64,000 bases of DNA, from positions 96,001-160,000 of IMG/VR virus record IMGVR_UViG_3300037851_000671; one strand, written 5' to 3'. Positions within the stretch are counted from its first letter, which is position 1. Every line of letters begins with the position of its first letter. The translations under genes and the position numbers were made by a program. Below the pieces are notes generated by a model. It was given only the letters and a program-made list of their open reading frames with translations. It had not been told where the DNA came from and ran no database searches. Below, in pieces: positions 14,323 to 35,438 of the stretch. This DNA comes from a virus (Duplodnaviria; Caudoviricetes).

Positions 14323-14348
14323 AATGTCATATGAAGGAAGTTTGACAG

Positions 14349-15467
14349 ATGAAAATAAAAATACAACAATTCCTTTTTGGCGTTAACCATTCTTGGGCGT
14401 TTGTTGGTCAGAATCTAGGAAGATCTCTGCTGAAACTTGGGCATGATGTAGAGTTCGTTTCAACAGATGGAATAGTTGAAAAATATGTTCCATCTGATTT
14501 GAAGCCGCACGTTAGAATCAAGCCAACCGGAATTTATGACTGCCAAATAAGTTATACAGCTCCGCATAATTGGCATTATTATCTTGCACACGGCACAAAG
14601 AACAAATTTGGAATATGGAATTACGAATATAACAATCGTCAATTTACAGATGAATATAGAACCCTATTAGCTGGGTTTGCCAAGCATTACAAAGCATGTA
14701 ATTATGTATTGCCATCATCTGAGTTTACGAGAGAAGTATTCAGGAGCATGTCTATTCCAGATGAAAAGATGAGGGTAGTGCCCCACGGCATCAACCTTGA
14801 AGATTTCGCTTCAGAAAAAGCCATAACACTAAGAACTAACAAGAAAAGAAAAATACTCCTAAACATTGCCCAACCACACAAGCGCAAGGCACTTCATTTG
14901 GCTCTGAAGGCATTTGGAAAAGCATTCACGAAAGATGATGATGTTTGTTTAGTTGCCAAGGTGTTCAAAGAGAATAAGAAAGACCACCAATTTGATGTTG
15001 ACTTTCCTTCCCTGTATAGAACGTTCGAGAGCAAATTTCCGAATCATGCAGAGGTCGAGTTCGTATATGATTTCATCCCAAACATTGCAGAGATTTACAA
15101 AGCATGTGATGTGAACTTCTCGGCAACATTTGCGGAATGCTGGCATCTTCCATCACTTGAAGCATTGGCAGCAGGAATAATTAACGTAGTTCCAAGATAT
15201 GGTGGTCAACTTGATTTCTGCAATGATGAGAACTCTTTGTTAATAGATGGGTCAGTTGTAAGAGCACCAAGAGATCATCAATATTGGCAGTTCAATCCTT
15301 ATGCTGTTCATTTTGAAATAGACACAGATAATGCGGCTAAGAAACTGCAACAGGCTGTTTTTGAGCATGATTCGCTGAAGGCGAAGTTTCAGTCGAGAAT
15401 GCTAGACACCGCCAAACAATTTACCTGGGATTCCGCTGCAACACAAATTCTCAATCTCTGTGAGTGA
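14349..15467 (+). CDS. glycosyltransferase family 4 (GT-B)
   Basis: 'VVPHGIN', 'RKALHLALKAF' and the EX7E motif 'ECWHLPSLE'. Confidence 0.9.
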   Translation: MKIKIQQFLFGVNHSWAFVGQNLGRSLLKLGHDVEFVSTDGIVEKYVPSDLKPHVRIKPTGIYDCQISYTAPHNWHYYLAHGTKNKFGIWNYEYNNRQFTDEYRTLLAGFAKHYKACNYVLPSSEFTREVFRSMSIPDEKMRVVPHGINLEDFASEKAITLRTNKKRKILLNIAQPHKRKALHLALKAFGKAFTKDDDVCLVAKVFKENKKDHQFDVDFPSLYRTFESKFPNHAEVEFVYDFIPNIAEIYKACDVNFSATFAECWHLPSLEALAAGIINVVPRYGGQLDFCNDENSLLIDGSVVRAPRDHQYWQFNPYAVHFEIDTDNAAKKLQQAVFEHDSLKAKFQSRMLDTAKQFTWDSAATQILNLCE

Positions 15468-15553
15468 ATTTTCTTGTTTCGGAAATGCTAAAAACTGCGC
15501 CAAGGTTAATTAACTTAAGATCTATCTATTAATCAGATCATTTAGCAAGGAGT

Positions 15554-16339
15554 ATGCCAATGAAGCCAAGACTGTCCATCGTTGTTCCGGCCTACAACAA
15601 CTACGCAGAATACACTAAGAAATGCCTTGAGGATCTAGTTAAGCTGCCGGAAAATCATCAGATTATTCTGGTGGACAATGGAAGTACCGATGGAACACAA
15701 GAGCTTGTAAACTACCATTGGTTTCCTGGGGATTTGTTTGGGGTACCTGCTCCTGTTCCAGACGAAACACTGGATGATGATGCTTCTTGGGCCAAGCAGC
15801 TACGAGAACAGCGCTTATATGTCAGGGCCAACGGAGAAAACTTGGGTTTCGCCAAGGCTTGTAACATCGGATATCAGGCGGCCAAAGAGAACGGGGCGGA
15901 ATTCGTAATGTTCTTGAACAACGATATACGAGTTCGCAGCAATCATGCCGAGTGGACAAAACCAATTCTAGAAGTGGCGGCTTCTGGCAGGTTGGCCGGA
16001 CCAACCATGGGACTTTTGGATAACAGTTTTGTTTTTGTTGGCGAGTATGCACGAATGCCATCTGGTAAAAACGTGTATATGAGCGGGTGGTGTATCACAG
16101 CATCGATAGATACCTGGGAAAAACTTGTTCCTGAAAATCACATCGGTCCTTTCTGCGAAGATTTTGGATTGGCGTTCCACGAAGATACTGACCTTGGTTT
16201 CCGAGCACGCAAACTTGGAATTGAGTTTGGTATAGTTCCAATTCCAGTTCATCATTTTGGTCATAAAACAACTGACAAATTAAACACCAGTCTGTTATAC
16301 AGGCAGTCTCGTGTTGTGTTCATGAAAAAATGGGGATGA
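15554..16339 (+). CDS. glycosyltransferase family 2
   Basis: 'SIVVPAYN', 'VDNGSTDG', 'NLGFAKACN', 'FLNND', 'EDTD'. Confidence 0.92.
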   Translation: MPMKPRLSIVVPAYNNYAEYTKKCLEDLVKLPENHQIILVDNGSTDGTQELVNYHWFPGDLFGVPAPVPDETLDDDASWAKQLREQRLYVRANGENLGFAKACNIGYQAAKENGAEFVMFLNNDIRVRSNHAEWTKPILEVAASGRLAGPTMGLLDNSFVFVGEYARMPSGKNVYMSGWCITASIDTWEKLVPENHIGPFCEDFGLAFHEDTDLGFRARKLGIEFGIVPIPVHHFGHKTTDKLNTSLLYRQSRVVFMKKWG

Positions 16340-16340
16340 T

Positions 16341-17150
16341 ATGACAGTTCTTCATATACTTACATTGAATTGGAATGGCATCGGTATTATCGGTGATCTT
16401 CACAAATCACTGAAGCCAGCTCTTGATGTTTTGAAAGATATACAGACTGTTTGGCATGTTAGAGACAATGGCTCAACCGATGGTTCGCTTGAGTATATCA
16501 ACACAATCAAAGATATTCCAACAAACATATTGGCAGCTGGTCATAACAGGGATTCATTTGCTGGTGGTGTAAATTCTCTTTGGTGTGAAGCAAAGCCAAA
16601 TGACAATGACTATCTCCTTCTTTTGAATAATGACGTGGTGTTTTTTGATCCTACGTCAATTGAAAAGATGATCAGCCTACAGAAAGCAACCAAGGCAGGG
16701 GTTGTTGGGGCAAGGTTACTATTCACAGGAACGAACAAACTACAACACGCTGGTGTCATTTTCAGCGATAGGTATGGGAGAATGCCTTTCCATTATCGCC
16801 CAAATGAACCAACGGATGCCGCTGCTGAGAAGAACCGTTATTTCCAAGCCGTAACCGCTGCGTGTTGCCTGGTGAAGGCGGGAGCTTTTGCCAAGATCGG
16901 TGGTTTGGACGAAGGTTATCGTTGGGCCTTTGAAGACATAGATATGTGTTTGGCTATTGGAAAAGATCATAAGATTGTCTATTGTGGCAACACCGGCATC
17001 TTCCATGGCGAGAGTGTAAGCTTGAAAAAGAACAATGTGAATAAGTTGTTCTTGAACCCAAACGTAAAACTGTTCAGGGAGAAGTGGACAGGTAAGTATA
17101 AGATAGATCACGATGCGTATTTGCGTGATGTAAATTTCAACGTTGTTTGA
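16341..17150 (+). CDS. glycosyltransferase family 2
   Basis: 'DNGSTDG', 'LLLNND', 'AVTAACCLV', 'GGLDEGY..FEDIDMC'. Confidence 0.92.
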   Translation: MTVLHILTLNWNGIGIIGDLHKSLKPALDVLKDIQTVWHVRDNGSTDGSLEYINTIKDIPTNILAAGHNRDSFAGGVNSLWCEAKPNDNDYLLLLNNDVVFFDPTSIEKMISLQKATKAGVVGARLLFTGTNKLQHAGVIFSDRYGRMPFHYRPNEPTDAAAEKNRYFQAVTAACCLVKAGAFAKIGGLDEGYRWAFEDIDMCLAIGKDHKIVYCGNTGIFHGESVSLKKNNVNKLFLNPNVKLFREKWTGKYKIDHDAYLRDVNFNVV

Positions 17151-18130
17151 CGATGGCAAAGAAGCGGTGTTACAAGCCTCAGTTTTTCCCATTCTGCCCT
17201 GGTATTCAGTGGAAGGTTGAGAGGGGCAAATACGTAGTTCCAGAGGTTGATTCTGAGACGTGGCAGAAAACCATTCATGGCAAAGAGATTGTTGTTACTG
17301 TTTTTGGAGGACTGTTAGAGTCCTTCATCTCTTTAAGCGTACTTGAAGCCATAACATCAATTGAACCTTCCAGAAACGTAACATGGCTTGGCAACGCTGG
17401 TTTCAATCAACTGTTACAACTGCATGGTTTGTGTAAAAGCTCCTCTATTGGTTTGACTAAGGAGCATCTTGCCAAATATCCTGCGCCTGTGTTTTTCGAT
17501 CAGGACAACAGGGTATACTTCAACGTATTGAACAACTACCTGACACGCTATAGTTATTGGGGAGAAAACCCAGAGACCGTTGATGACCCGGTGGTGAAGC
17601 AGATATTCTCCAATTCACTATTGCCGTGGAACTATCAGGTTCCGAGACTGAGGGCTTTGAATCCTGTTGATTCTAGCAAGATCATGAAAGACAACAAGGA
17701 TAGGGTTATCCTTTTTGTTTTGGATGGTGTATACGAACATTCTTTCAAAACTCTAGAGTGGGGTGTTCACAACATCAGAGAGTTGGCGGCCATGTTGTTT
17801 GGCAAAAAGTTCAAGGTGGTTGTGGCTACTGATAAACCTGGACCGTTCTATGGTACGAAAGCTGTGCCGATTCCATGTGACCAAAAAACCGTACTCACCA
17901 TGATTAGCAAGGCATGGATGGTTTTGTCACCAACGATAGATTGGCTTTTGATTGCCCTGATGCTTTCCAAGGCTATCGTTGTCGAGAATCATATTGGAGA
18001 GATTCCACCTGCGTTTGATTTATTTGCAAACGCCGAATTTCTTAACGCTCAGAACGTTATATCAACAGATCACAACGATAGGATATCACCAATAGATATT
18101 TACGCACTGTGTTGCAATGAGGGATTATGA
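17147..18130 (+). CDS. glycosyltransferase-like protein, possibly GT9-like
   Basis: N-terminal 'VFGGLLESFISLSVLEAI' resembles the GT9 start segment; located in the GT cluster; weak match. Confidence 0.4.
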   Translation: MTMAKKRCYKPQFFPFCPGIQWKVERGKYVVPEVDSETWQKTIHGKEIVVTVFGGLLESFISLSVLEAITSIEPSRNVTWLGNAGFNQLLQLHGLCKSSSIGLTKEHLAKYPAPVFFDQDNRVYFNVLNNYLTRYSYWGENPETVDDPVVKQIFSNSLLPWNYQVPRLRALNPVDSSKIMKDNKDRVILFVLDGVYEHSFKTLEWGVHNIRELAAMLFGKKFKVVVATDKPGPFYGTKAVPIPCDQKTVLTMISKAWMVLSPTIDWLLIALMLSKAIVVENHIGEIPPAFDLFANAEFLNAQNVISTDHNDRISPIDIYALCCNEGL

Positions 18131-18903
18131 CAAGTAAAGTTTGTTTGATGATGGTCACGTACAACCGCCTTGCTCTAACCAGGCGTACCATGGTTGGCCT
18201 TGGTAAAAGCATTCAGATGCCGTTCGATATGGTGGTTGTTGATAATGGTTCGGCTGATGGAACGGTGTCCTATTTCGATAGTCGTGATTTTGACACTGAC
18301 ATCGGTAACAAGCCAGATTGGAAACAGAACAAACTATCCAACCTATTCATCACTGACAACAAAGAGAACAAGGGGATTGCGATTGGAAGGAACCAAGCTC
18401 TCAAGCATGGGATGGAAGGAGGGTACGATTGGCTTGTTACCTTGGATAATGATGTGGAGATGCCCGAGGGTTGGCTAGAGGAAGCAATCTCAATTCTATC
18501 AGCTAACAGAAGCTACGGTGCTATTGGTGTGAATATGGAAAATACACCATATCCTTTGGTTACCAAGAATGGATTTACTTTCCAAGATAAACCGGCAGGC
18601 AACCTTGGAACTGCCTGTATAGTGTTCCCGAAATCAACACCAAAGATGCTTGGATACTTCAACACAGAATACGGAAGGTATGGTGAGGAGGATGCTGATT
18701 ACGGCATGAGGATACGTGTTGCCGGTTTCAAACTGGGATACATTGAAAGAATGGGGACACACTTTGGCGAGGGTGAGTTGGACAAAGGTGAGTATAGAGA
18801 ATTTAAGACTAAGGCTCATAGGGATAATCTGAGAAAGTTTCAGGAGAATTGTGCGGCTTATGCCCAACGCCGAAAGCCTATATTTATCCCATATAAGGAC
18901 TGA
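18127..18903 (+). CDS. glycosyltransferase family 2
   Basis: 'VTYNR', 'VVDNGSADG', 'NKGIAIGRNQAL', 'TLDND', 'EEDADY'. Confidence 0.9.
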   Translation: MTSKVCLMMVTYNRLALTRRTMVGLGKSIQMPFDMVVVDNGSADGTVSYFDSRDFDTDIGNKPDWKQNKLSNLFITDNKENKGIAIGRNQALKHGMEGGYDWLVTLDNDVEMPEGWLEEAISILSANRSYGAIGVNMENTPYPLVTKNGFTFQDKPAGNLGTACIVFPKSTPKMLGYFNTEYGRYGEEDADYGMRIRVAGFKLGYIERMGTHFGEGELDKGEYREFKTKAHRDNLRKFQENCAAYAQRRKPIFIPYKD

Positions 18904-18904
18904 T

Positions 18905-20551
18905 ATGTTTCAGAAAGTGATAAAAAACGAAGATCTAAAAAACTACATATTATCTTCCAATCATACCTTTTCTTCTGGCGAATTCACCACCATTCAACCA
19001 AAGTTCGGTTTGTTGACTTTGGATTTTTCAAGTGAGCCTGATGCTGTTTCTTGTTTGTTGAGGTTCAGGAGAGTATCTGGTAATGGGCTTGTTATTCTCA
19101 CAGCTGACTCAATCACCAAAGAGATTCAGATCATTTCTCAAACATCTCAAGAGGCAGCTTTCGAGCTTGGTCCTTCTAAGATTCTGAAAATACAAAGAGC
19201 CAATAGAAGTAGTGGTGATCTTTGTTTGTCTCAAGTTTCATTAGTATACAGGACACAGCAAGCAGTCGAACCCAATCTGATAGGTGAGCTGAAAAAAGCC
19301 AAGAGCTATAGCCTTATCAGAGTAGTTGATGGAAAGCTGTTCGCTAGTGGTGGTGGCGGAAGCATTGAAAGCTCATCAATCTCAAACATACAAACAGATC
19401 CTCCTGGTGTGTTTAAGAAGACAGATACAGGTGTTGTTTTCAATGATTCGTGTGTAATAACCTCATTAAGTATAGATGTAAATGAAAGCGTCCAAAAACA
19501 TGTTGTCGATGTTGTTGTCAAAGCACAACCTGAACCTATTGAGCCTACGGTTTTGACAAAGGAGACAGAATACGTTCCAACAGATCCTATAGTGGTTAAT
19601 AAAACCTTTGTGTACGACACTTCATCGAGTCATTTCAACCCGGCTTTCTGCGTAAAGTCTTCTGAGGTTAATGGAAACTCTGCTGTAATTGATTTTGACG
19701 GATCATACACAATACCTCTAAAGATGCTTGGCGAAAAAACCGGATACAGCGTTACGGTTGAAGTAGAGAGGGTTAATGGTAATGGAAAGTTTGCATTTGG
19801 TATTCTGCCTGACACGGAGACCATCAATGTAAAGGTGGCAGCTGGTGCGTCTAGAACATTTGGTTGTACGGTTTTCATTGAAGATGCTGGAAGGGATTAT
19901 AGTTTCTCAATCTGGAGGACTGCATCTTCTGTTGGTAAAATAAGGGTAAACAGAATAGTTATCAAGCCAGATGGGGCTATTCGTTCTGCCAGGTTTGCCG
20001 CTAGAGAGAATCATGTCACTCATCAGCCAATCGGATACATACCAAATGCCCCATATGCCTCTAAGCTTGAACAGAAGGCGCCTGAATTCACTGGTCGTGA
20101 TATACTTTCATCAGCTAGGCCTTTGTCTATTCCAATTGCCAGGTGCAACGGAGATATGGTAATGCGTTCTGCTATGCAGTATTCGGCAGAGCAAGGATAT
20201 TTGTGGAATCTGTTGAACAACGTGTCTTTGCCGTGGGATAGGTCTACGTCAAAAAGATTTGTACCAGTTACACATGATGGTTTTATTGTAATAATCAACA
20301 GGGACTATCAGCTTACAAACAACGTTTTGAAGAAGCTTACAAACTCTAGTAATGTGGTTGTTGTGGGGGCTAGAGGGGTTTATCCTAATTGCATAATATC
20401 AATCAATGACTATACTGAGTACGAGTGCGTGATGGATGTGCTTGAAAGAAGCTCAGCTGTAGTGGATACAGCGGACTCTGGTATAGTTCCGTTATTACAC
20501 GTACTTGGAAAGAGGTTTGTTGATATCAATGGAACGTTAGAGGACTTCTAA
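18905..20551 (+). CDS. multidomain protein: two beta-rich repeats plus a GT9-like C-terminal segment
   Basis: ATG at 18905 chosen; repeated 'FRRVSGNG' / 'VERVNGNG'; C-terminal 'SSAVVDTADSGIVPLLHVLG' resembles the GT9 DSG motif. Confidence 0.4.
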   Translation: MFQKVIKNEDLKNYILSSNHTFSSGEFTTIQPKFGLLTLDFSSEPDAVSCLLRFRRVSGNGLVILTADSITKEIQIISQTSQEAAFELGPSKILKIQRANRSSGDLCLSQVSLVYRTQQAVEPNLIGELKKAKSYSLIRVVDGKLFASGGGGSIESSSISNIQTDPPGVFKKTDTGVVFNDSCVITSLSIDVNESVQKHVVDVVVKAQPEPIEPTVLTKETEYVPTDPIVVNKTFVYDTSSSHFNPAFCVKSSEVNGNSAVIDFDGSYTIPLKMLGEKTGYSVTVEVERVNGNGKFAFGILPDTETINVKVAAGASRTFGCTVFIEDAGRDYSFSIWRTASSVGKIRVNRIVIKPDGAIRSARFAARENHVTHQPIGYIPNAPYASKLEQKAPEFTGRDILSSARPLSIPIARCNGDMVMRSAMQYSAEQGYLWNLLNNVSLPWDRSTSKRFVPVTHDGFIVIINRDYQLTNNVLKKLTNSSNVVVVGARGVYPNCIISINDYTEYECVMDVLERSSAVVDTADSGIVPLLHVLGKRFVDINGTLEDF

Positions 20552-21445
20552 CATCTTCTTGTACACTGTTGTATTTACGATTCTGGAACACAATCCGTTA
20601 GGATCTGATAACGTAGTACGAATAGCAGATCTAAATAGTTCATAGTCCTGTTTACCGTAGTTTTTGATAACATCAATGATTGCGGGATTGATGTTGATAT
20701 TTGATCCGTTCTTTGTGACAAACTTTCTAAGATCAATGTAAGTGTGTTCTGGCAGGTTGAAAGAGTCTATGTTGTAGCATCCCATGTACATTGGGACCGT
20801 GCCTGAGAATATAGAATCAGGTAGTTTTTCCGTCATGTAGTTCTTGGAATACACTGGGTCATATGTGTTCTCAGAGCATAGAGAAAAACAGAATTTTGCA
20901 ATGGTTTGTGCTTTATTGTCAACTCTGCCTTTGTAGTATGATCTGTTCAATGGCATTGTACCGAACCAAGAAACTTTAATACCTGAATTGTAAAACAAAT
21001 CAGCCAGCATAACTCTAAGATTATATATACTGGCCGGATGATCTGAATGTTTTGCATTTGCAACAATAACAATCTCTTTTTCTCTATTTTCCCAAGGAAA
21101 CCATGAGTCAACTATATTTGGGTTCTCTCCGTAAAAATAACTTGGGTAGTTTATCTGTACTGTATTTTTTAGTGTTGGGAAAGCTTCCGAACACCATGTA
21201 AAAACCTTCTTGAATTTACTGAGAAAACCTACATCATAATCATTTGGAGAAACCACTATTGGTTCAAGTATAAGGGCACTATCTTCTGGTCTTGGATTGT
21301 TGTTAGCATACCATCCAGTGAATACATTTGGAACGCTTTCTTTACGGGCATTGGACATGTACACTGATCCATCATCTCCTTGGTAGTGTAAATACGGCTC
21401 TCCATAATGTGATTGATAGATTACGTTTACTTCTCTTGTCACCAT
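20537..21445 (-). CDS. glycosyltransferase family 10 (alpha-1,3-fucosyltransferase-like)
   Basis: 'FCFSLCSENTYDPVYSKNYMTEKL..SIFSGTVPMYMG' matches the GT10 motif. Confidence 0.85.
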   Translation of the reverse strand: MVTREVNVIYQSHYGEPYLHYQGDDGSVYMSNARKESVPNVFTGWYANNNPRPEDSALILEPIVVSPNDYDVGFLSKFKKVFTWCSEAFPTLKNTVQINYPSYFYGENPNIVDSWFPWENREKEIVIVANAKHSDHPASIYNLRVMLADLFYNSGIKVSWFGTMPLNRSYYKGRVDNKAQTIAKFCFSLCSENTYDPVYSKNYMTEKLPDSIFSGTVPMYMGCYNIDSFNLPEHTYIDLRKFVTKNGSNININPAIIDVIKNYGKQDYELFRSAIRTTLSDPNGLCSRIVNTTVYKKMLEVL

Positions 21446-21452
21446 GTTAGCT

Positions 21453-21470
21453 CATATACCAGGATATATG
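21453..21470. promoter_or_regulatory. CATATA-N6-TATATG inverted repeat between divergent GT10 and GT2 genes
   Basis: Sequence catataccaggatatatg; contains GGATATA. Confidence 0.35.
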
Positions 21471-21477
21471 TACGTTT

Positions 21478-22239
21478 GTGAGTGAAACATCGACAATGAC
21501 ACATAGGTTTGTAGCTTGCATACCATCGTACAACAATAGCCAATGGTATGAGAAGAATCTCCTATCCGTTATGTCACAGCAATACGCTGATTTTCGGGTA
21601 ATCATCACAGATGACTGTTCTACCGATGGGGGCGGAGATCAGATCGAATCATTGATCGAGCGCAAGAATTTTGGCAATGTTGTAACTTTGATTAGAAACC
21701 CTGAACGTCTTGGGGCTATGGCGAATATGTACAACATGTACCGTATGTGCGATGACAAAGAGATCATCGTACACATTGATGGTGATGATTGGCTAGCTCA
21801 CGATAAGGTTTTTCAGAAGTTGAATGAAGTATACCAAGACCAGAACATTTGGCTTACTTACGGCCAGCATCAATTATATCCAGATGGTGGGCTTGGCTGT
21901 TCAAGAGAGATTCCGAAACACGTTATTGACAAAAACTCTTTCAGAAGGTTTAGATGGTGTTCTTCACACTTGCGTACTTTTTATGCGGCATTGGCCAAGA
22001 ACATCTGCATGATAGACTGTATGATTAATGGGGAATTTTATCCGATGACTAGCGATCTGGCTACCATGTTTCCCATGCTGGAAATGGCTGGTCATCACCA
22101 AAAATTCATACCAGACATTCTTTACATCTACAATTACTCATCTGACATAAATGACGCAAAGGTAAATATAAAGTTGCAACAAAATCTTGAGAGGTTTATA
22201 CGAAGTAAACCTTCATACAGTAAACTGGAAGCTCTATGA
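21478..22239 (+). CDS. glycosyltransferase family 2 (paralog A)
   Basis: 'IPSYN', 'TDDCSTDG', 'HIDGDDW'; start GTG 21478 or ATG 21496. Confidence 0.9.
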   Translation: MSETSTMTHRFVACIPSYNNSQWYEKNLLSVMSQQYADFRVIITDDCSTDGGGDQIESLIERKNFGNVVTLIRNPERLGAMANMYNMYRMCDDKEIIVHIDGDDWLAHDKVFQKLNEVYQDQNIWLTYGQHQLYPDGGLGCSREIPKHVIDKNSFRRFRWCSSHLRTFYAALAKNICMIDCMINGEFYPMTSDLATMFPMLEMAGHHQKFIPDILYIYNYSSDINDAKVNIKLQQNLERFIRSKPSYSKLEAL

Positions 22240-25957: not shown

Positions 25958-25970
25958 GCGAGATGAACCA

Positions 25971-27298: not shown

Positions 27299-27881
27299 AT
27301 TTTCTGGTAATCGTCAGTTTTTCTTTTCACAAGACGATGATTTCAAACTGCCAAGGCAATCCTCGTTTGATTTTGCAAAAGTCATAGCTGACTATGTAAC
27401 CAAACATGACAACCTGAAGGTTCTGGAAATAGGACCTTCAGGATCGTTTGATCCAAATACTTCATACGATGAATTTGATACCTCAAGTTTGATACGTCAG
27501 TCTTGCAAATCATCACAGTATTTGACATGCGATCTTGTTGATACTAGGTGTGACTATACTTGTTCTGTAGAAAATCTGTCGAGCCTTGGAGTGAAGTTTG
27601 ATGTCATTGTAATGCTATCGGTTCTTGAGCATGTACGTGATGTTTTCTCGGTTCCAGAAGAACTACACAAATCATTAAATGATGGAGGTGTAGTATTCAT
27701 TAGCACTCCTTTTCTGTTCAAGGTACATGGCCCAGTGCCAGATTATTGGCGTCTGACACAATACTCATATGATGTTTTGTTTGGTAGTTTGTTTGATCTT
27801 GATGTAACCACTTACCCACCGAATCAACTTGGCAAGAATTCGTTTCCTTTATGTTTCAATGTAGTTGCGGAGAAGAAATGA
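27261..27881 (+). CDS. class I SAM-dependent methyltransferase
   Basis: 'VLEIGP', 'FDVIVMLSVLEHV', 'LNDGGVVFISTPF'. Confidence 0.85.
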   Translation: MENSSNENTKHTKFSGNRQFFFSQDDDFKLPRQSSFDFAKVIADYVTKHDNLKVLEIGPSGSFDPNTSYDEFDTSSLIRQSCKSSQYLTCDLVDTRCDYTCSVENLSSLGVKFDVIVMLSVLEHVRDVFSVPEELHKSLNDGGVVFISTPFLFKVHGPVPDYWRLTQYSYDVLFGSLFDLDVTTYPPNQLGKNSFPLCFNVVAEKK

Positions 27882-28789
27882 AAGTGTTGTTTTTGGGTGG
27901 TGGAAGGCGCAATTCTTTGGCTAGAAGATTCAAGGCTAAAGGCTGTGAGGTTTTAGCTTACGAACTTTCAGAGAGCGTTCCAATAGCCAAAGAATGTAAA
28001 GTGATTGTTGGTAAACCATGGCAGACTGCGGAACGTCATGTATCTGAAGTCTGTTCTGAGTATGGTATAAATTTGACGATACCACTTGATGATAGAGCAA
28101 CCTTGATTGCTGCTAGTATATCTATGGCCGGTGTGGTCAAATCGCCAACATCAACTGTTGAAACAAACAATATATGTTTAGATAAACGTGCATTTGAATC
28201 CTCAATTGTACTTGGTACAAACATTCCTTATCCAACGCTAAGTGATGATTTTAAAATCATTCGAAAACCTAGATTCGGTTTTAATTCAAAAAACATTTCT
28301 GTAGTTGAAAATATAACAGAGAAAGATGAAGATTTCGTATATCAAAGTTTCATAGAAAACGGGATTGAGTATTCTGTTGATTGTTATTTTGATGTTGACT
28401 CACATTTGGTAGGGGCTGTTCCAAGGACAAGGTTATTGGTACAAGGTGGTGAGGTTGCAAAGAGCCAAACCGTATCAAGAGAAAGTTTAGACTATCAACT
28501 TCTCAGAAGTTATGTTCATGAGCTTGGTTCAGTGTTGAATATGAGGGGGCCTGCGTGTGTTCAATTCATCAAGCATCCAATCACCGGTATTTTTTACATC
28601 ATGGAAGCAAACGCTAGGTTTGGCGGTGGCGTAATACTATCTTTAGAAGCTGGATTTGATATCATACAAATGATTCTAGATGAGTATATAAACGACAAGG
28701 CTGTTTCGTGCTATGAAAAATGGACAGAAAACCTTGTAATGCATAGGTATTTTGATGAGTATTTCTACGAAGAAAAGATATGTGTTTGA
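27878..28789 (+). CDS. ATP-grasp enzyme
   Basis: 'RKPRFGFNS', 'EYSVD', 'EANARFGGG'. Confidence 0.85.
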   Translation: MKVLFLGGGRRNSLARRFKAKGCEVLAYELSESVPIAKECKVIVGKPWQTAERHVSEVCSEYGINLTIPLDDRATLIAASISMAGVVKSPTSTVETNNICLDKRAFESSIVLGTNIPYPTLSDDFKIIRKPRFGFNSKNISVVENITEKDEDFVYQSFIENGIEYSVDCYFDVDSHLVGAVPRTRLLVQGGEVAKSQTVSRESLDYQLLRSYVHELGSVLNMRGPACVQFIKHPITGIFYIMEANARFGGGVILSLEAGFDIIQMILDEYINDKAVSCYEKWTENLVMHRYFDEYFYEEKICV

Positions 28790-29090
28790 TCTTGATGGGA
28801 CGTTGTGCGAAGAGCGCCCTACTTTTGAGAGGTCTTTATCTCAACCAATTACAACAATGATTGAGTTTGTAAATTGTCTATATGACCATGGACATAGAAT
28901 TACAATCTATACCGCCAGAAGCTGGGCTGAGTATGAAATGACAGAACACTGGTTGAAAGCAAACAGCGTTAGATATCATACGCTTCTTTGTGGTAAACCG
29001 ATATATGATACCTGGATAGACGATAGGGCAATCAATGTCAAAGACGTCCAGGTGAAAAATGATTCCGATATATGCACCTTACCTAAATGA
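28755..29090 (+). CDS. HAD-superfamily phosphatase (capsule-biosynthesis type)
   Basis: 'FDLDGT', 'YTAR', 'GKP', 'IDD'. Confidence 0.85.
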   Translation: MSISTKKRYVFDLDGTLCEERPTFERSLSQPITTMIEFVNCLYDHGHRITIYTARSWAEYEMTEHWLKANSVRYHTLLCGKPIYDTWIDDRAINVKDVQVKNDSDICTLPK

Positions 29091-30168
29091 AAACATACTT
29101 AAATACGCTCATCAGGCGATTGACTCTACATGGATATCGTCAAAAGGTAGGTTTCTTGAGGAGGCTACCTATGACATTGCTAATTTTTACGAACATAGGA
29201 AATTGCCGCTATTGTGTAGCAACGGTACAACGGCAATGCACCTTCTGGCTAGGTGCTTAAAAAAATACCACCCTCATATCAAAAAGATCATTGTACAAAA
29301 CAATGTGTATGTAGCTGCATGGAACGCGTTCCTTTTTGACCAGAGTTATGAGCTAGAAGCTGTTGATGCTTCTGTTGATACCTGGAACTATGATCTTGAT
29401 TTGTTATACGATGTTCTTGGTAAGCAAAACATTGAAGAAACTGCCTTGTTAGTTGTACACAATGTTGGCAACATCATAAACGTTCCAAAAATTCAAAGGG
29501 ATTGGCCTGGACTTGTTGTAGTGGAAGATAACTGTGAGGGTTTTGGCGGAACCTACGAGGACATGAGGTCAGGTGAAGCTGCTGTGTTTTCGGCTATCAG
29601 TTTCTTCGGTAACAAAAACATTACTAGCGGTGAGGGCGGGGCCATTATCTTGAACACGCAAGAAGAACATGATTTTGCGTTTTGTTTACATGGACAAGGA
29701 CAATCATCCAAGCGTTTTATTCATGATGAGCTTGGTTACAACTACCGTATGACCAATATACAAGCAGCTATCCTTCATGGACAGATGCTTGCGTACTCTG
29801 AGATAGCAGATAAAAAACGAAAACTATTCGCTGCGTACCAATCTCTCTTAGAAAACGTTGAAGATGTTGTTTTACCACAGATAGAACCAGGAACCACACA
29901 CTCTAATTGGATGTTTGGTATTCGTGTGCTGAATGGTAATTACAGCGATATGGAATCGTTTTTCAATGAGCGTGCGATAGAGGTAAGGCCAATGTTCTAT
30001 CCCATGACCTCTCACAAGTATCTTGGTCACATAAAACAGAACGGTCTAAAAGTGGCGAAGCAACTAAACCAAGAGTGTTTGATTTTACCAAGCTATCCTG
30101 ACTTAAAAGATCACGAGATATATCACGTTGTGCAAACACTTAAGTGTTATGTAGAAGGAGTTAAATGA
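29059..30168 (+). CDS. per: DegT/DnrJ aminotransferase, GDP-perosamine synthase-like
   Basis: 'DSTWISSKG', 'SNGT.AMHL', 'SFFGNKNITSGEGG', 'GYNYRMTN'; adjacent to gmd. Confidence 0.85.
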   Translation: MIPIYAPYLNENILKYAHQAIDSTWISSKGRFLEEATYDIANFYEHRKLPLLCSNGTTAMHLLARCLKKYHPHIKKIIVQNNVYVAAWNAFLFDQSYELEAVDASVDTWNYDLDLLYDVLGKQNIEETALLVVHNVGNIINVPKIQRDWPGLVVVEDNCEGFGGTYEDMRSGEAAVFSAISFFGNKNITSGEGGAIILNTQEEHDFAFCLHGQGQSSKRFIHDELGYNYRMTNIQAAILHGQMLAYSEIADKKRKLFAAYQSLLENVEDVVLPQIEPGTTHSNWMFGIRVLNGNYSDMESFFNERAIEVRPMFYPMTSHKYLGHIKQNGLKVAKQLNQECLILPSYPDLKDHEIYHVVQTLKCYVEGVK

Positions 30169-31142
30169 GGAAAGCGTGCATCACTGGAATTACTGGGCAA
30201 ACGGGTAGCTATCTAACAGAACTTTTGCTTGATAAAGGCTACGAAATTCACGGCATGGTCAGACGTAGCAGCTCTTTCAACACAGAGCGTATCGACCATG
30301 TATTCGATAGAGTAAAATTGGTCTACGGAGATCTTTCTGACTACTCTTCTATCTCTAACTGGATCCAAAAGGTTCAACCAGACGAGTTCTATAACCTGGG
30401 GGCCATGAGCCATGTTCGTGTGTCGTTTGATATCCCAGAGTACACAATGGACATTGGAGCTACTGGAGTGGTGCGTTGTCTGGAGGCTATTCGTCAACAC
30501 AGTCCTAAAACCAAGTTCCTACAAGCTTCTACCAGCGAACTGTTTGGTGGTTTCAATCCGCCACAGAACGAGAACTCTCCATTCTATCCGCGTTCACCAT
30601 ATGGAGCGGCCAAGATTGCTGGTTACTGGTCTACCATAAACTACAGAGAGGCATATAACATTTACGCAGTGAATTCAATCAGTTACAATCACGAATCAAG
30701 CAGGAGAGGTGAGACATTTGTAACGCGAAAGATTACAAGAGCGGCTACTCGCATCAAGCTTGGTTTACAAGACAAACTTGTTCTTGGTAATCTATCAGCC
30801 AAGCGTGACTGGAATCATGCCAAAGATGTAGCGAATGCCATGTGGCTGATGATGAACGCCCCTCAGGCTGATAACTGGGTTGTGTCTTCTGGTGAGATGC
30901 ACTCTGTTCAAGAGTTTGCAGAGATGGTGTTCAAGAAATTAGACCTTGACTGGAATAGGTACGTTGAAAGCGATGCTAAGTATTTTCGACCAACAGAAGT
31001 CGAGGAACTGTGTGGCGATAGCACTAAAATTAGGACCCAGCTTGGTTGGAAACCAGAATATTCATTTGAGCAACTTGTTGACGAAATGATTCAACATGAT
31101 TTGAAATTAGCTGGACAAGAGCTTATCATAAAAAGGATGTGA
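30165..31142 (+). CDS. gmd: GDP-mannose 4,6-dehydratase
   Basis: 'ITGITGQTGSYL', 'SHVRVSF', 'STSELFG', 'PRSPYGAAK', 'NHESSRRGETFVTRKIT'. Confidence 0.97.
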   Translation: MRKACITGITGQTGSYLTELLLDKGYEIHGMVRRSSSFNTERIDHVFDRVKLVYGDLSDYSSISNWIQKVQPDEFYNLGAMSHVRVSFDIPEYTMDIGATGVVRCLEAIRQHSPKTKFLQASTSELFGGFNPPQNENSPFYPRSPYGAAKIAGYWSTINYREAYNIYAVNSISYNHESSRRGETFVTRKITRAATRIKLGLQDKLVLGNLSAKRDWNHAKDVANAMWLMMNAPQADNWVVSSGEMHSVQEFAEMVFKKLDLDWNRYVESDAKYFRPTEVEELCGDSTKIRTQLGWKPEYSFEQLVDEMIQHDLKLAGQELIIKRM

Positions 31143-31143
31143 G

Positions 31144-32133
31144 ATGAAGAAAATACTAGTTACCGGATCTGGCTCTTTTTTGGGTCAGCATGTGGTTCCG
31201 TTGCTTAAAAGCGTTACTGGTTTCGAGGTTCTAACACCACGTAGAGATGAGCTGGATCTTTTCGACAGGGCACAGACAAAAACGTATCTGCGTAGACACC
31301 AGCCAGATACCATCCTTCATATGGCGGCTCTTTGTGGTGGGATTGGAGCAAACAAAAATAGCCCTGCCATGTTCCTTCAGCGCAACGTTGAGATGACCAT
31401 GAACTTGTTTGAGGGGGTCCTGTTCACCAATAGATACAATGACAGCGTGCCATACTTTCGTGGGTTCGAACCAATCCAACGTGTCTATGGACTTGGTTCG
31501 GTGTGTATGTATCCGAAGTTCACTCCGGTGCCATTCAAGGAGGAGAACATCTGGAACGGCATGCCAGAGGAAACCAATTTTCCATACGGCGAGTCAAAAA
31601 GGGTTTTGCTGGTGATGCAGCAGGCATATCGCAAACAGTTCGGACTTCGTGGTGCTCATCTGGTTCCTGTCAACATGTACGGCGAGCATGACCACTTTGA
31701 CCTTGAGAACAGTCACGTCATTCCAGCTCTCATTCGTAAGTTCGTGGAGGCCAGGGATTTCGACATTCCATCTGTTGAAGTGTGGGGCAACGGCGAGGCT
31801 ACCAGAGAGTTCTTGTATGCTGGAGATTGTGCCAAAGCTATCGTTAAAGCTGTGACCACCTCTTTGGACTACAATGAACCTATAAATCTCGGCACTGGCG
31901 TTGATATATCAATCAAGAGGCTGGCCGAGAAGATTAAGAATCTCACCGGATACAACGGACAGATAACCTTCACTGGTGATGTGGTTATCAACGGTCAGCC
32001 AGCCAGACGCTTAGATGTTAGCAGGGCCAAGGAAGTTTTGGATTGGCAGGCTGAGATCGACCTGGATAATGGATTATACAAAACCATACATTGGTTTGAA
32101 AAGAATTTGAAGGAACAACGTGTTCACACCTAA
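31144..32133 (+). CDS. fcl: GDP-L-fucose synthase
   Basis: 'HMAALCGGIGAN', 'LGSVCMYP', 'TNFPYGESK', 'SHVIPALIRK', 'WGNGEATREFL'. Confidence 0.92.
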   Translation: MKKILVTGSGSFLGQHVVPLLKSVTGFEVLTPRRDELDLFDRAQTKTYLRRHQPDTILHMAALCGGIGANKNSPAMFLQRNVEMTMNLFEGVLFTNRYNDSVPYFRGFEPIQRVYGLGSVCMYPKFTPVPFKEENIWNGMPEETNFPYGESKRVLLVMQQAYRKQFGLRGAHLVPVNMYGEHDHFDLENSHVIPALIRKFVEARDFDIPSVEVWGNGEATREFLYAGDCAKAIVKAVTTSLDYNEPINLGTGVDISIKRLAEKIKNLTGYNGQITFTGDVVINGQPARRLDVSRAKEVLDWQAEIDLDNGLYKTIHWFEKNLKEQRVHT

Positions 32134-33535
32134 ATTGATCAATACATTAAGCAAGATACAAGAGAAGATTACCGATATCCCTCTTGATAAATTTGAAACC
32201 ATATCCAAAGAGGTTATGGCTTTGGATGCTCTTTGCGATAAGCTTTCGGAAAAGAAAGAAGAGCAGAGTATTTTCACTGAGAAAGACCTTGAGTCAATAC
32301 ACTTCCTTGAAAAATATGTCAGGGAATGTATTGCAAAGAAAGCGCAAAAGAAGGTTGATAAACCAACTGGTATCAGGGCTCGTTTCGATTTTTGGAAAGC
32401 AGTAAAACCATACAATGTTACAGTTGAAGAGGTCAACGTCATCAAGGATAAGAAAGAGGTTATCAAGGGCAAAAGGGAAGAAGCTCAGACTTTTGATCTT
32501 ACGACAGAAGATTTGCAGAAGTTTGTTGATGGCACTTTGACAATGGCTGATTTGGCTAAGATGATCAAACCCCTTAGCGAGGCTGATAAAGAGCTATTGA
32601 AACCAATACCTCCGGTTTGGGAAAAGGAAACGTCAACAGATGAGGTAAAAGAAAACAAACCCGTAAAAACACTTGAGTATTTCCAGAAGAATAAGGGCAA
32701 GTGGGTAAGGGCAGATTGGTTTACTAAGCACGAACAAGAGAAAGAGGAAAAGGCAAAGCAAGAGCAAGATGAAAAAGCCAGGGCAGACGAACTCAAAGTA
32801 GAGATTGTTAAAAACACCACAAGGGTCAATGACATCAAACACAAACTTGAGGTTTTCTGTCGTAAACTGTTATCTATCACATTAAACAAACCAGTTGCCG
32901 AAGAGACTTACAATCCAGATGACAAATATCCTTGGAATGTAAAATCACAAGCAAACTCTCTAATATCTCAATGCAACAAGATATTGGTTCTTATCAAGGG
33001 CATTGATAGAGCCTGTTTTCACAAGCATCATGGTGGTAAAGATGCCATTTCAAACGATGAGCTTTCCAAACAGTTGATGAAAGCTATCGTTGATTTTGGT
33101 GCCATAGATAGCGATGTCCAAACATTCCTTAACAAATACTACGATGAGTCTATTGATATCATCCATCCTGTTAGAAAACTAAGTGATGTAAAGCTTGATT
33201 ACATAGCGGAGCAGCAAAAGAACAAAGAAGAACTCATAAAAGCTGAGCGTGAGTTTGCTTCCACCATTGGGTTTGGACCACGCCAGAAAACAGTTGGTCG
33301 TGGGGCTGGTGGTTGGTTTGTCATGGCCGGTGATAAACTTGGTGATGTTGAAATACTGACAGCCAAGAAAGTTGGTATGACAAAGAAGAGAGACTATGTG
33401 AAAGAGCTTAAGTCTTTGAAGGTGTCTGACATTAAGAAATGGGTTGTCAGCATTTGGAACCACAAAATAATGAAGAAGCCAACAGAAGCTCAGAAAATCA
33501 AAGAGCGTTTTGAGAAGCTTGGTCTGGATGGTTAA
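32120..33535 (+). CDS. hypothetical Lys/Glu-rich protein
   Basis: 471-aa ORF with GTG start and GAAGGA RBS; no recognisable motif. Confidence 0.7.
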   Translation: MFTPKLINTLSKIQEKITDIPLDKFETISKEVMALDALCDKLSEKKEEQSIFTEKDLESIHFLEKYVRECIAKKAQKKVDKPTGIRARFDFWKAVKPYNVTVEEVNVIKDKKEVIKGKREEAQTFDLTTEDLQKFVDGTLTMADLAKMIKPLSEADKELLKPIPPVWEKETSTDEVKENKPVKTLEYFQKNKGKWVRADWFTKHEQEKEEKAKQEQDEKARADELKVEIVKNTTRVNDIKHKLEVFCRKLLSITLNKPVAEETYNPDDKYPWNVKSQANSLISQCNKILVLIKGIDRACFHKHHGGKDAISNDELSKQLMKAIVDFGAIDSDVQTFLNKYYDESIDIIHPVRKLSDVKLDYIAEQQKNKEELIKAEREFASTIGFGPRQKTVGRGAGGWFVMAGDKLGDVEILTAKKVGMTKKRDYVKELKSLKVSDIKKWVVSIWNHKIMKKPTEAQKIKERFEKLGLDG

Positions 33536-33546
33536 TTGGGTAGGCT

Positions 33547-33612
33547 ATGGGAAAGAAGCAGAAGATACTTGTGACAGGAAGTGGTGGTTTCTGTCAATAT
33601 TGTGATATTTAG
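33547..33612 (+). pseudogene. truncated 5' stub of an NAD-dependent epimerase gene (MGKKQKILVTGSGGF-CQYCDI*)
   Basis: Translated by hand; the first 15 codons align with the N-terminus of the 34503 gene (10/15 aa, 30/45 nt identical). Confidence 0.8.
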
Positions 33613-34547
33613 ATATGTTTACATCAAAACGTCACGTTAGAGATAAGAACGGAAAACTCAAATTTGAGTTTCTAATAAAGTGTCAGTGTTGCAATGTTGA
33701 AAAATGGGTCATGTGTTCAATAACACGGGCCAGAAATATGAAATATTGCTCTCGCAAGTGTATCAATATAGGAAAAAAACATACACAAGAGTGGAAAGAC
33801 TCTATTTCAGAACGCAATTTAGGATCTAATAACCATTTCTTTGGAAAAAAGCACACACAACAAACAAAACAAAAAATGTCAGATTCACATGAACACAAAA
33901 ATGTTTACTGGATCATGAAAGAAAAGCTTAAGCCAGATGAGTTTGTAATATATTGGGGAAAATTACTGCAACAAGTTCGTAGGAGATAAAAACCATTTCT
34001 TTGGAAAGCAACATACACAAGAGACGCGTCAACACCTGTCGGAAGTTAGGTCTATAGGTATAGCTAACGGAACAATAGACATTAAACCTAGTCATTATGG
34101 GTTGAAGGGTTATTACACATCAACAAAAACAAATACCAAATTTAGATTTGACTCTTTCGTTGAGCTAATAAGAATGAATTTGCTAGACAATGACGATGAA
34201 GTTGTTTCATGGACAAAAAGACACGGTATTAGAATAAAATACATATTAGACGGCGTAATGAAACGTTACATTCCAGATTTTATGATAGTGAAAAAGGACG
34301 GTAGTACGGTAATAGAAGAAGTTAAAGGATATGAAAATGCAAAAAAGAAAGAATGTAAATTTCAGGCTTTGTGTGAATTCTGTATAGAAAACGGATATAT
34401 TTCGAGCATTGTGACATATGAGCATATCCGGTCTATTTGTCCAAAAGAGTTTGGGAAAAGCTTATGCTCCCTTAGAGGGTATTACAAAAAGGGTGATTTG
34501 TCGTGGATAAAAAGAAAAAATTACTTATAACTGGAACAGGCGGCTTC
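33592..34547 (+). mobile_element. free-standing homing-endonuclease-like insertion carrying a replacement 5' end for its target gene
   Basis: Lies between two diverged copies of the epimerase N-terminus; contains the NUMOD3 + PD-(D/E)xK ORF; visibly A-rich. Confidence 0.65.
33615..34530 (+). pseudogene. NUMOD3 + TnsA-like PD-(D/E)xK endonuclease split by a 1-nt frameshift
   Basis: Track ORFs 33615-33989 and 34102-34530; the second frame is open from 33949 and has a further NUMOD3 repeat 'GDKNHFFGKQHTQET'; removing one G from GGGG at 33955-33958 joins the two; nuclease motif 'YIPDF..IEEVKG'. Confidence 0.75.
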
Positions 34548-35438
34548 ATTTTTGGAAACTTCATCAGACAGGCATTGTTCAACAAGAAGCCATACGTTCT
34601 TTCCAGCATAGATAGGGTCAAGGAGACGCATGTCCTTTACAATATCTATGTGAACCAGGACCATGCTTTCTACATAGCTGATCTTAGAGATAATCACACG
34701 TTGAACATCATAGTGAAAAAGGAGGAGCCGGATATCATAATCCATGGTGCGTCTGAGAACGCACCGTCCTCCTTTGTCAGCTGTAATGTTGTAGGAACGC
34801 AAAACGTAATCGATGTCTGTGCTGATAATGGGTGTAAGTTGATCTACGTTAGCACAGATGAGGTTTTTGGGCCTCAATCATCTGAGAAAGATCCTCGTTG
34901 GACTGAGAATAGCCCACTCAAACCGGTTACTCCTTTTGCCGCATCAAAAGCCGCAGGGGAGTTGTTGGTCAAGGCTGCGAGAGGGTTGAACTACAACATT
35001 GTCAGGCTATCGAACGTATATGGTATGTGGCAGCCACAGAACAAACTCATTCCCAAAATAGTAAAGAGTGTTCTGTCTGAAACTCCGTTTACCATGTACG
35101 GTAAGGGAGATGAGCTAAGGGAGTGGACACATGTCTATGACGTGTGTTCTGCCATTTTCCAACTCGTGGATAACTGGACCGCTAACGAGGTTTACAATGT
35201 TAGCTCAAACCAAGAGTTCATGAATGTTGAAGTATTTCAGATGGTTTGCAATGTTTTGGGCAAAGGGCATAATCTGTTAAAGTTCTCGGAAGCCAAAGAG
35301 AAAATTGCTTCACGATATGCGATGAACGCTGATAAGATCAAATCTCTTGGCTGGAAACCAAACTATGCTAAATTGAAAGAAGGTTTAACTGACACTTGCC
35401 AATGGTATGTAAGTAATCAATTTGTTCTAAGGATGTAA
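34503..35438 (+). CDS. NAD-dependent epimerase/dehydratase, RmlB-like, with a degenerate active site
   Basis: 'ITGTGGFIF', 'YVSTDEVFG', 'LSNVYG', 'REWTHVYD'; YxxxK reads 'FAASK'. Confidence 0.85.
   Translation: MDKKKKLLITGTGGFIFGNFIRQALFNKKPYVLSSIDRVKETHVLYNIYVNQDHAFYIADLRDNHTLNIIVKKEEPDIIIHGASENAPSSFVSCNVVGTQNVIDVCADNGCKLIYVSTDEVFGPQSSEKDPRWTENSPLKPVTPFAASKAAGELLVKAARGLNYNIVRLSNVYGMWQPQNKLIPKIVKSVLSETPFTMYGKGDELREWTHVYDVCSAIFQLVDNWTANEVYNVSSNQEFMNVEVFQMVCNVLGKGHNLLKFSEAKEKIASRYAMNADKIKSLGWKPNYAKLKEGLTDTCQWYVSNQFVLRM

Follow-up and report, generated by a model that had tools for sequence, protein, structure and literature searches.

A glycosyltransferase-rich gene island in a fixed slot between tail and tubulin genes of ~450-kb freshwater phages, with a possible role in virion glycosylation

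Both large sugar-gene clusters in jumbo phages and the glycosylation of virions by phage glycosyltransferases (GTs) have already been published, and statements on these systems refer here to the cited passages of each source. In Che8, Corndog and Myrna, capsid and tail-tube proteins receive glycans from GTs that the phages themselves encode (cited in PMC12363180, PMC11600133), glycoproteins were detected in virions of the jumbo phage XacN1 (PMC5852040), and clade-specific glycogene clusters are described for mimivirus fibrils (PMC9614988). Here we describe a gene island of 21,090 bp (14349-35438) in a 64-kb stretch of tailed-phage DNA, hereafter the window, which corresponds to positions 96,001-160,000 of IMG/VR virus record IMGVR_UViG_3300037851_000671 (G000; 218,772 bp, CheckV completeness 51%). 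The island contains 25 open reading frames (ORFs), 24 of them on the plus strand and with junctions that are mostly 4-nt overlaps or gaps of 1-13 nt, and it starts 26 nt past the stop (14322) of the gene for the tail protein BP996, as stated in an earlier prediction made for this DNA (the original prediction), which described a nearly all co-directional, tightly coupled island directly after the last baseplate-operon gene. Eleven genes are of GT type (a GT4, five GT2, a GT10, a GT11, a PF13524 enzyme and two proteins of GT9 fold). Taken together, the gene content tentatively suggests carrier-free cytoplasmic glycosylation of outward-facing virion proteins, a reading in which our confidence falls somewhat short of an even balance. 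Positions are those of the window unless prefixed by G000, which denotes the whole record; G001-G005 are related records, and L073-L077, L011-L015, L022, L030, L032 and L037 are loci or contigs of relatives, L075 coming from G001 and L015 from G004.

In the cge/sps spore loci of Bacillus, soluble GTs including PF13524-type enzymes, together with nucleotide-sugar enzymes, decorate a protein particle intracellularly with neither lipid carrier nor exporter. That system is cellular and the island viral, and with the PF13524 family as the sole tested common element it serves as a mechanistic analogue. The mycobacteriophage systems of Che8, Corndog and Myrna share with the island soluble phage GTs, a methyltransferase, a lack of export genes and a structural-protein target, the latter being proposed here for the island; compared by gene content, they comprise about three tandem GTs and one O-methyltransferase (PMC11600133), whereas the island has about 11 GT-type genes and its own nucleotide-sugar pathways. 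In those phages the C-termini of capsid and tail-tube subunits hold the acceptor sites (PMC12619734), whereas the acceptor of the island is one that we infer, and Myrna, unlike the present phage, has no GT gene after its baseplate genes. Common to the island and the mimivirus and chlorovirus clusters (PMC9614988) are a virus-encoded GDP-sugar route, many clustered GTs and methyltransferases and a clade-specific content, and in those viruses bacterial-type sugars are made in the cytoplasm for the virion surface, as is proposed for the island. The chlorovirus NY-2A GT 3oy2 and the island GT4 are alike in GT-B fold only (template-modelling (TM) score 0.73, ~16% identity), and the giant viruses have eukaryotic hosts and chemically solved glycans, whereas the tailed-phage island is known from its genes. 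Clusters of the P-SSM2 type in cyanophages (PMC7824862) are, like the island, large and polymorphic and combine dehydratases/epimerases, several GT families, methyltransferases and HAD phosphatases, but they carry sugar kinases and nucleotidyltransferases that are absent from the island clade (sugar-1-phosphate nucleotidyltransferase PF00483 in none of five records), and in the cited part of that paper a fixed slot after tail genes, as seen for the island, is not reported. A literature search, supplements excluded, found no description of the island of this clade. New here are the scale (about 11 transferases plus two or three nucleotide-sugar branches), the fixed tail-tubulin slot across a ~450-kb clade, the minimal three-GT core, the phage-specific GT9-fold families and a co-occurring excess of the tripeptide Asp-Gly-Tyr (DGY).

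A Kyte-Doolittle hydrophobicity scan in 19-residue windows was applied to all ORFs of at least 70 aa in G000 and to the 694 ORFs of the tiled G003, a relative of 458,729 bp rated 100% complete, from which it follows that the full genome of the present phage is probably ~450 kb. None of the island ORFs, and hence none of its GTs, contained a membrane-helix-like stretch, the maximum mean value being <1.5 except for 2.06 in ORF 17147 (ORFs are named by their first position). Only two ORFs in the 218 kb of G000 had at least two hydrophobic 19-mers; in G003 this number was 12, of which 11 were 73-199 aa long, no ORF exceeded five segments, and the five-segment ORF was the orthologue of a tail-module protein. 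The priming transferase PF02397 was found in none of five related records including the complete G003, the search control being positive in 10/14 genomes, and the hydrophobicity scan of G000 and G003 revealed no candidate flippase, polymerase, ligase or ABC permease, although no hidden Markov model search for Wzx/Wzy was made. Within that scope, two features of the original prediction were confirmed, namely GTs without membrane segments and the absence of Wzx, Wzy, an ABC exporter and a priming transferase.

These results bear on the possibility that the phage GTs act at the inner membrane face on undecaprenyl-linked O-antigen, capsule or teichoic-acid intermediates of the host, which host flippases and ligases would then export, so that the surface would be altered during a long infection, for example to block superinfection or progeny re-adsorption. 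GT2, GT4, the GT9 fold, GT10 and GT11 are classic lipopolysaccharide/capsule families, and the grouping of nucleotide-sugar enzymes with several GTs is a trait in common with O-antigen/capsule clusters. Peripheral O-antigen GTs normally have no membrane segments. Remodelling of the host envelope is the published reading of jumbo cyanophage clusters such as the 15-gene cluster of P-SSM2 (PMC7824862, section 3.4.10), and a 2026 preprint classes huge-phage GTs as envelope-associated in its cited part (10.64898/2026.10.24.761521). However, neither a priming transferase nor a flippase, polymerase, ligase or ABC permease was found in G003, so every extra-cytoplasmic step would depend on a compatible host pathway; we consider envelope remodelling rather unlikely, if still the strongest rival reading.

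The presence and absence of island genes was compared over G000-G005, L073-L077 and L011/L012. BP996 was directly followed by GT4, GT2a and GT2b in 10 of the 12 contigs with downstream sequence (the window, L073, L074, L076, L077, L011, L012, L075, G003 and G005; L013, which ends too soon, was left out). The remaining two contigs, L014 and L015 (G004), are nearly identical to each other, and in both BP996 is followed by other genes. The G004 island is complete at another location, where it extends from GT4 to the terminal short-chain dehydrogenase/reductase (SDR), with tubulin next, and comes after a 468-aa ORF whose Peptidase_S74 endosialidase-chaperone domain is a hallmark of tail fibres. 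The linkage to baseplate genes, which had been put forward as a point to check in related genomes, was therefore recovered, with a fibre-type gene taking the place of BP996 in G004. At the other end, the SDR was followed by the tubulin gene in 6/6 records with that end visible (G000, G002, G003, G004, G005 and L077). That the first island gene keeps its place after a tail or fibre gene, a count of 12/12 contigs, argues against remodelling of the host envelope, and the same adjacency would be left unexplained if the product were destined for a non-virion acceptor (see below).

GT4 was present in each relative examined and orthologues of GT2a and GT2b in all relatives, while L077, the most distant of them (BP996 39% identical), contained only GT4, GT2a, one unrelated ORF, GT2b and the SDR. 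To this core the other relatives add GT9-fold proteins, GT2c, the 566-aa protein encoded by ORF 18851, GT10, GT11, the PF13524 enzyme, Gmd/Fcl and DegT. Specifically, orthologues of ORF 18851 were found in G001, G002, G003, G005, L073 and L076, those of the PF13524 GT in G001, G002, G003 and G005, and those of the terminal SDR in G002, G003, G004, G005 and L077, and the opposite-strand orientation of GT10 was kept in L073, L074, L075, L076, G004 and G005. Lineage-specific cassettes comprise GNAT, formyltransferase, KdsA-like and CMP-transferase genes in G003, sulfotransferase, C-methyltransferase and TnpB genes in G004, and methyltransferase, ATP-grasp and HAD genes in G000; for this last set, the only BLAST counterpart in relatives was a partial HAD match of 37%. 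The island is a conserved core with a swappable middle in a fixed slot in this ~450-kb clade. Its variable content between relatives, resembling that of O-antigen loci, and the KdsA-like and CMP-transferase genes added in G003 would fit a product for the host envelope. The G004 island includes two TnpB/IS605 OrfB-like genes on the minus strand (L037:11926-13074 and 17042-18337), and a low-GC insertion between fcl and the SDR (32120-34530), which had no BLAST orthologues in relatives and was seen in this genome only, is probably a mobile element.

The island clade consists of uncultured ~450-kb freshwater phages that are distant kin of Bacillus phage G. By baseplate J, that phage ranks first among cultured relatives (34% over 25% of the protein) and cluster C actinophages come next, among them Myrna (28.9% identity to the present phage); Bacillus phage G has no island after its baseplate genes and a single sub-threshold GT2 match. 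In a megablast search against 50,697 phage records the island had zero matches. GT4 homologues numbered 526 at E up to 1e-5, the best 120 of these 526 being at least 51% identical, on contigs of up to 463 kb, several of them 446-463 kb. The core GTs are old and vertically inherited, with mainly viral relatives: GT4 identity (45-73%) tracks BP996 identity (39-62%) over relatives, codon usage is like that of the rest of the genome (relative synonymous codon usage, r 0.87-0.92 in the larger gene groups) and the nearest GT9-fold clusters are 92-100% viral. Such a phage family, with no recent loans from hosts, is not what remodelling of the host envelope would lead one to expect. Moreover, no tyrosine integrase was found in five records, so the clade is probably lytic and without the lysogenic state that would make serotype conversion profitable. 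Beyond the clade, two uncultured huge phages (636 and 735 kb) share the GT9-fold protein, a DUF4254-like protein (72% identical) and DegT, and LR756501.1 (735 kb) has seven GT2 matches in ~30 kb at 305-336 kb, two of them in one 1756-aa ORF, as well as gmd and a pair of GT9-fold genes, a further large glycan region in a huge-phage lineage distinct from the present one. Moraphages were ruled out as members of the same clade, being 200-307 kb in size and placed with Lak and T4 phages in the cited part of PMC12619734.

The nucleotide-sugar genes of the island suggest which sugars could be made. The product of gmd passed the equivalog model TIGR01472 (438.9 vs cut-off 415), confirming its predicted identity. 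For the gene predicted as fcl, a GDP-fucose-synthase model was the best match (NF047922), but the score of 242 lies under the cut-off of 500, and it is therefore termed Fcl-like. The aminotransferase predicted to be perosamine synthase-like (PF01041, 206 bits) had perosamine synthetases as its top three PDB sequence matches (3bn1, 3dr4; E 1e-41), whereas its best NCBIfam match was a LegC-family model below cut-off. The terminal SDR (34503), described earlier as an epimerase, is instead nearest to dTDP-glucose 4,6-dehydratases in the PDB (E 6e-47). In the proposed pathway, host GDP-mannose would be converted to GDP-4-keto-6-deoxymannose by Gmd; GDP-mannose must come from the host because PF00483 is absent from all five records, and mannose supply may be aided by a phage phosphomannomutase encoded ~4.5 kb beyond the window (G000 164474-165226). 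The Fcl-like reductase could then yield GDP-L-fucose, the type of substrate used by GT10 and GT11, while the DegT enzyme could provide a GDP-perosamine-type amino sugar that the ATP-grasp enzyme or methyltransferases could modify, and the RmlB-like dehydratase may open a second 6-deoxyhexose route. About 11 soluble transferases would add the sugars singly and directly onto a phage-made protein acceptor. Decorating the glycan would be the task of the methyltransferases, the ATP-grasp enzyme and the weak SGNH-like protein, and the acceptors would be tail, baseplate, fibre, neck and head-decoration proteins glycosylated in late assembly. In G002, gmd (L032:11185-13347) is interrupted in frame by 395 aa at the conserved NHE|S.RRGE motif; this insertion is intein-like, with a LAGLIDADG-like motif and a His-Asn end before Ser, the Pfam intein/LAGLIDADG matches being weak. 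The fcl-like gene is lengthened C-terminally to 836 aa in G002 (L032:13354-15864), where the addition shows a faint, non-significant match to a DXD sugar-binding region, and to 513 aa in G004 (L037:7332-8873, minus strand).

Among the decorating enzymes and transferases, the calls for GT4, the five GT2 (one of them weak), GT10, GT11, ATP-grasp, FkbM and class I methyltransferases passed the Pfam cut-offs. The SGNH call did not, and the HAD phosphatase, also below the Pfam cut-off, was recovered by PHROG 1238 (E 1e-25). GT2d and GT2e both match one single orthologue in relatives. The predicted CgeB-like GT is well above the PF13524 cut-off, with CgeB as a tentative label; a tblastn search of this GT against the 50,697 phage records gave no match.

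The predicted structure of GT4 (predicted local distance difference test (pLDDT) 87) had PimA (TM 0.73) and the above-mentioned 3oy2 as Foldseek neighbours, along with BshA, MshA, GlgM and glycogen synthase. The latter four include small-molecule and polymer enzymes, and in keeping with this the acceptor could be a non-virion phage or host protein, a small molecule, a free oligosaccharide or a storage polymer. The ATP-grasp, methyltransferase and HAD genes would suit the tailoring of a metabolite, and tubulin and replication genes adjoin the island. On the other hand, eleven transferases with fucosyl/heptosyl-type folds far exceed known metabolite pathways and no polyketide synthase, nonribosomal peptide synthetase or aminocyclitol scaffold enzyme was present among the Pfam/NCBIfam matches, which, with the tail/fibre adjacency noted above, makes such an acceptor improbable.

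GT2c faintly matched the TET-associated GT family PF20691 (E 0.005), and phage GTs that build glycans on 5-hydroxymethylcytosine are described in the cited part of a preprint (bioRxiv 10.1101/2023.12.21.572611), so that the transferases could in principle glycosylate hydroxymethylated bases of the phage DNA and thereby evade restriction. This we regard as very improbable. The PF20691 match is under the cut-off (17.3 vs 27.5), the ThyA-type hydroxymethylase PF00303 occurred in none of five records including the complete G003 with a positive search control, and the phage has genes for ThyX and an N6/N4 DNA methylase instead; Tet_JBP PF12851 was likewise found in none of the five records, in a search whose control was silent too. 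To our knowledge, GDP-fucose, GDP-perosamine, GT10 and GT11 are not known in DNA modification.

Three genes had been tentatively predicted as GT9-like. None of them (ORFs 17147, 25971 and 18851) matched PF01075 (GT9) even at E up to 1, and ORF 17147 was without a match in Pfam, PDB-sequence and PHROG searches alike. By structure, ORFs 17147 and 25971 show a GT9 fold (TM 0.63-0.71), the Atlas cluster nearest to ORF 25971 being 100% PF01075 and its nearest clusters, of 341, 165, 97 and 54 members, 92-100% viral, whereas the prediction is unsupported for ORF 18851. In tblastn against phage records the GT9-fold protein matched three uncultured huge phages only. Profile searches with the three proteins lacking a Pfam match gave nothing below E 0.1 against PDB sequences, and hhalign among their profiles revealed no relationship (probability <2%). 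The AlphaFold model of ORF 18851 (pLDDT 62.5 overall and ~80-90 in the sandwiches, predicted TM score 0.30) comprises three beta-sandwich domains, a disordered linker and a short Rossmann-like C-terminus, and its Foldseek matches were tandem CBM22/CBM51, Cry/Vip3 C-terminal and malectin-like domains (E 1e-10 to 1e-7, low TM). Three carbohydrate-binding-module-like domains with a Rossmann-like end are thus suggested by the model as a lead only. Near a GT9-fold gene each time lies a gene for a DUF4254-like helical protein of ~102 aa (26954-27298, L030:14645-14953, L037:18806-19114 and L072:21415-21810), which is 72-78% identical across lineages whose remaining island proteins share 30-50%; in the window its real start is probably the second Met (residue 13).

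If the glycans are written on virion proteins, the DGY tripeptide is a candidate acceptor tag on outward-facing proteins. It was the most over-represented tripeptide in G000, with 79 occurrences observed vs 11 expected, the runner-up reaching 2.7-fold. All ORFs with at least two DGY lie in the head-to-tail and fibre gene blocks and the island proteins contain none; the flanks of the sites are unconserved and tandem runs are present, one of them in the 1023-aa protein encoded at G000 67739-70810. The excess recurs in G003 (84 vs 23), in the G004 baseplate locus L015 (24 vs 1.6) and in L077 (17 vs 1.3), and of 12 DGY sites in four BP996 orthologues four are common to all, four to two or three and four private. 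The tail region of Bacillus phage G showed no excess (2 vs 2.6), its 52 forward-strand DNA matches being evenly spread, and L022 had no DGY, a count that stands alone, unpaired with island status. In its most specific form, this would mean that complex fucosylated, amino-deoxy and methylated glycans are written directly on the Tyr (or Asp) of a free-standing Asp-Gly-Tyr sequon across outward-facing virion proteins by a carrier-free cytoplasmic system, providing a new sequon and, clade-wide, a variable coat on a par with that of giant eukaryotic viruses, a proposal that we hold to be unlikely. Residues 601-666 of BP996 form a dockerin type I/EF-hand-like calcium-binding segment, with several DGY in or beside its loops.

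A virion acceptor is favoured because of the fixed slot after a tail or fibre gene, the old phage-specific core enzymes, the lack of an integrase and the published precedent. The soluble, carrier- and exporter-free gene content and the conserved tail/fibre link of the cytoplasmic, stepwise virion glycosylation originally predicted are upheld by these data, while the virion is its proposed acceptor. Several observations weigh against glycosylation of the virion. No enzyme with a recognisable protein-initiating signature was identified in the island, and the fold neighbours of GT4 are generic and, as judged from the model, do not reveal its acceptor. Soluble GT2 and GT4 enzymes are also typical of O-antigen/capsule pathways that use a host carrier and exporter, so the absence of export genes leaves room for a host-surface product. 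Regarding timing, sigma-70 promoter and terminator scans of 13500-33400 gave chance-level counts (44 vs 48.2 and 13 vs 14.6, respectively), and strand and spacing say little, since ~340 kb of G003 (60-400 kb) lies on one strand. The island is tied to the tubulin/replication module downstream at least as firmly as to the tail genes upstream, the former link holding in 6/6 records, which points to a module boundary rather than a clear part of a late operon. As for DGY, some copies lie within dockerin/EF-hand-like DxDGDGY calcium loops, LR756501 and LR756504, two other huge phages with GT-rich regions, showed no excess at the DNA level (33/53 vs 24/31 and 32/23 vs 23/32), and the link between DGY and the island is weak, as the clade counts in effect as one evolutionary event.

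A G(A/T)TATA motif was found 9 nt before the start codons of 19 ORFs of mixed kinds, including GT2d and a GT2-like gene elsewhere, and assigns no timing class to the island; upstream of GT2d, GGATATAT stands 9 nt from the start at 21478. GT10 and GT2d are divergent and separated by 32 nt (21446-21477), and this interval contains a G(A/T)TATAT word on either strand, at a distance of 9 nt upstream of GT2d and 8 nt upstream of GT10.

Should virion glycosylation prove true, tailed phages would make glycan coats no less elaborate than those of mimiviruses and chloroviruses, backed by about 11 transferases, self-made deoxy and amino sugars and clade-specific cassettes. This would matter for adsorption, particle stability, grazing and immune recognition, and also for how the 'auxiliary metabolic' GT genes that dominate huge-phage catalogues are read. 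The clade is abundant, as the GT4 homologues and contig sizes given above indicate, the minimal island of L077 with three GTs and one dehydratase offers a small testable core, and DGY-rich fragments, such as BP996 at about residues 590-730, are ready candidate acceptors. If the product were instead destined for the host surface, the island would represent a very large investment of a lytic phage in envelope remodelling.

The features of the island and its flanks are listed in Table 1. Upstream, the first 96 kb of G000 and window positions 1-14322 form a single co-directional head-to-tail block (Pfam, PHROG) that includes an intein-bearing terminase, a tape-measure protein, a sheath initiator, Baseplate_J, a 2227-aa LamG protein and BP996. 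Downstream of the island lie tubulin, helicases, a sigma factor, an intein-bearing ribonucleotide reductase and more LamG/collagen fibre proteins.

Table 1. Island genes and flanking features in the window. Families were called by Pfam, PHROG and NCBIfam profile searches and are above the Pfam cut-off unless stated.
Feature	Position	Strand	Evidence
Sheath-initiator-like	900-1334	+	Pfam, PHROG
Baseplate_J	1410-4652	+	Pfam, PHROG
2227-aa LamG protein	4652-11335	+	Pfam, PHROG; 6 DGY
BP996, 996-aa dockerin-bearing tail protein	11332-14322	+	Pfam, PHROG; 8 DGY
GT4, retaining GT-B, first island gene	14349-15467	+	PF13439, PF00534 above cut-off; PHROG 2170 E 2e-31
GT2a, core	15554-16339	+	PF00535 61.9 bits
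GT2b, core, weak match	16341-17150	+	PF00535 25.3 vs cut-off 23.3
GT9-fold protein, 327 aa	17147-18130	+	ESM Atlas structure match to GT9 clusters, TM 0.63-0.64
GT2c	18127-18903	+	PF00535 52.2 bits; PHROG 2456
566-aa beta-sandwich protein	18851-20551	+	AlphaFold model, Foldseek
GT10 (alpha-1,3-fucosyltransferase family)	20537-21445	-	PF00852 28 vs 23.9
GT2d and GT2e, tandem	21478-22976 (GT2e from 22236)	+	PF00535 62.6 and 60.3 bits
GT11 (alpha-1,2-fucosyltransferase family)	22973-23716	+	PF01531 E 4e-25; PHROG 2644 E 1e-55
PF13524 Glyco_trans_1_2 GT	23644-24687	+	PF13524 71.9 vs 25
Weak SGNH-like ORF	24684-25352	+	PF13472 19.8 vs 32.9, below cut-off
FkbM methyltransferase	25349-25957	+	PF05050 44.7; TIGR01444 66.7
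Phage-specific GT9-fold protein	25971-26876	+	ESM Atlas TM 0.71 to GT9 cluster
DUF4254-like small protein	26954-27298	+	72-78% identical in G003, G004, LR756504
Class I methyltransferase, ATP-grasp (27851), small HAD phosphatase (below Pfam cut-off)	27261-29090	+	Pfam, NCBIfam, PHROG; GC 0.389
DegT aminotransferase (29059), GDP-mannose 4,6-dehydratase (30165), GDP-fucose-synthase-like SDR (31144)	29059-32133	+	Pfam, NCBIfam, PDB
Insertion: Lys/Glu-rich 471-aa ORF and two homing-endonuclease-like ORFs (NUMOD3; TnsA-like endonuclease); no glycan genes	32120-34530	+	GC 0.369
RmlB-like NDP-hexose 4,6-dehydratase SDR, last core gene	34503-35438	+	TIGR01181 233 vs 365; PDB
TubZ/PhuZ-like tubulin, downstream neighbour, outside the system	35488-36873	+	PF00091, PF22453

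Intein/LAGLIDADG insertions are found in the ribonucleotide reductase (window 44173-47865) and in the large terminase (G000 4876-7833). A GH5 cellulase-family gene adjoins a radical SAM/SPASM gene at G000 161005-162913, ~1-3 kb past the window end. Finally, a PARP-like protein with WGR, regulatory and catalytic domains (G000 176231-177757), a Macro-domain protein (window 62828-63334) and a NADAR protein (G000 199002-199436), all encoded on the minus strand, form a possible ADP-ribosylation toolkit.

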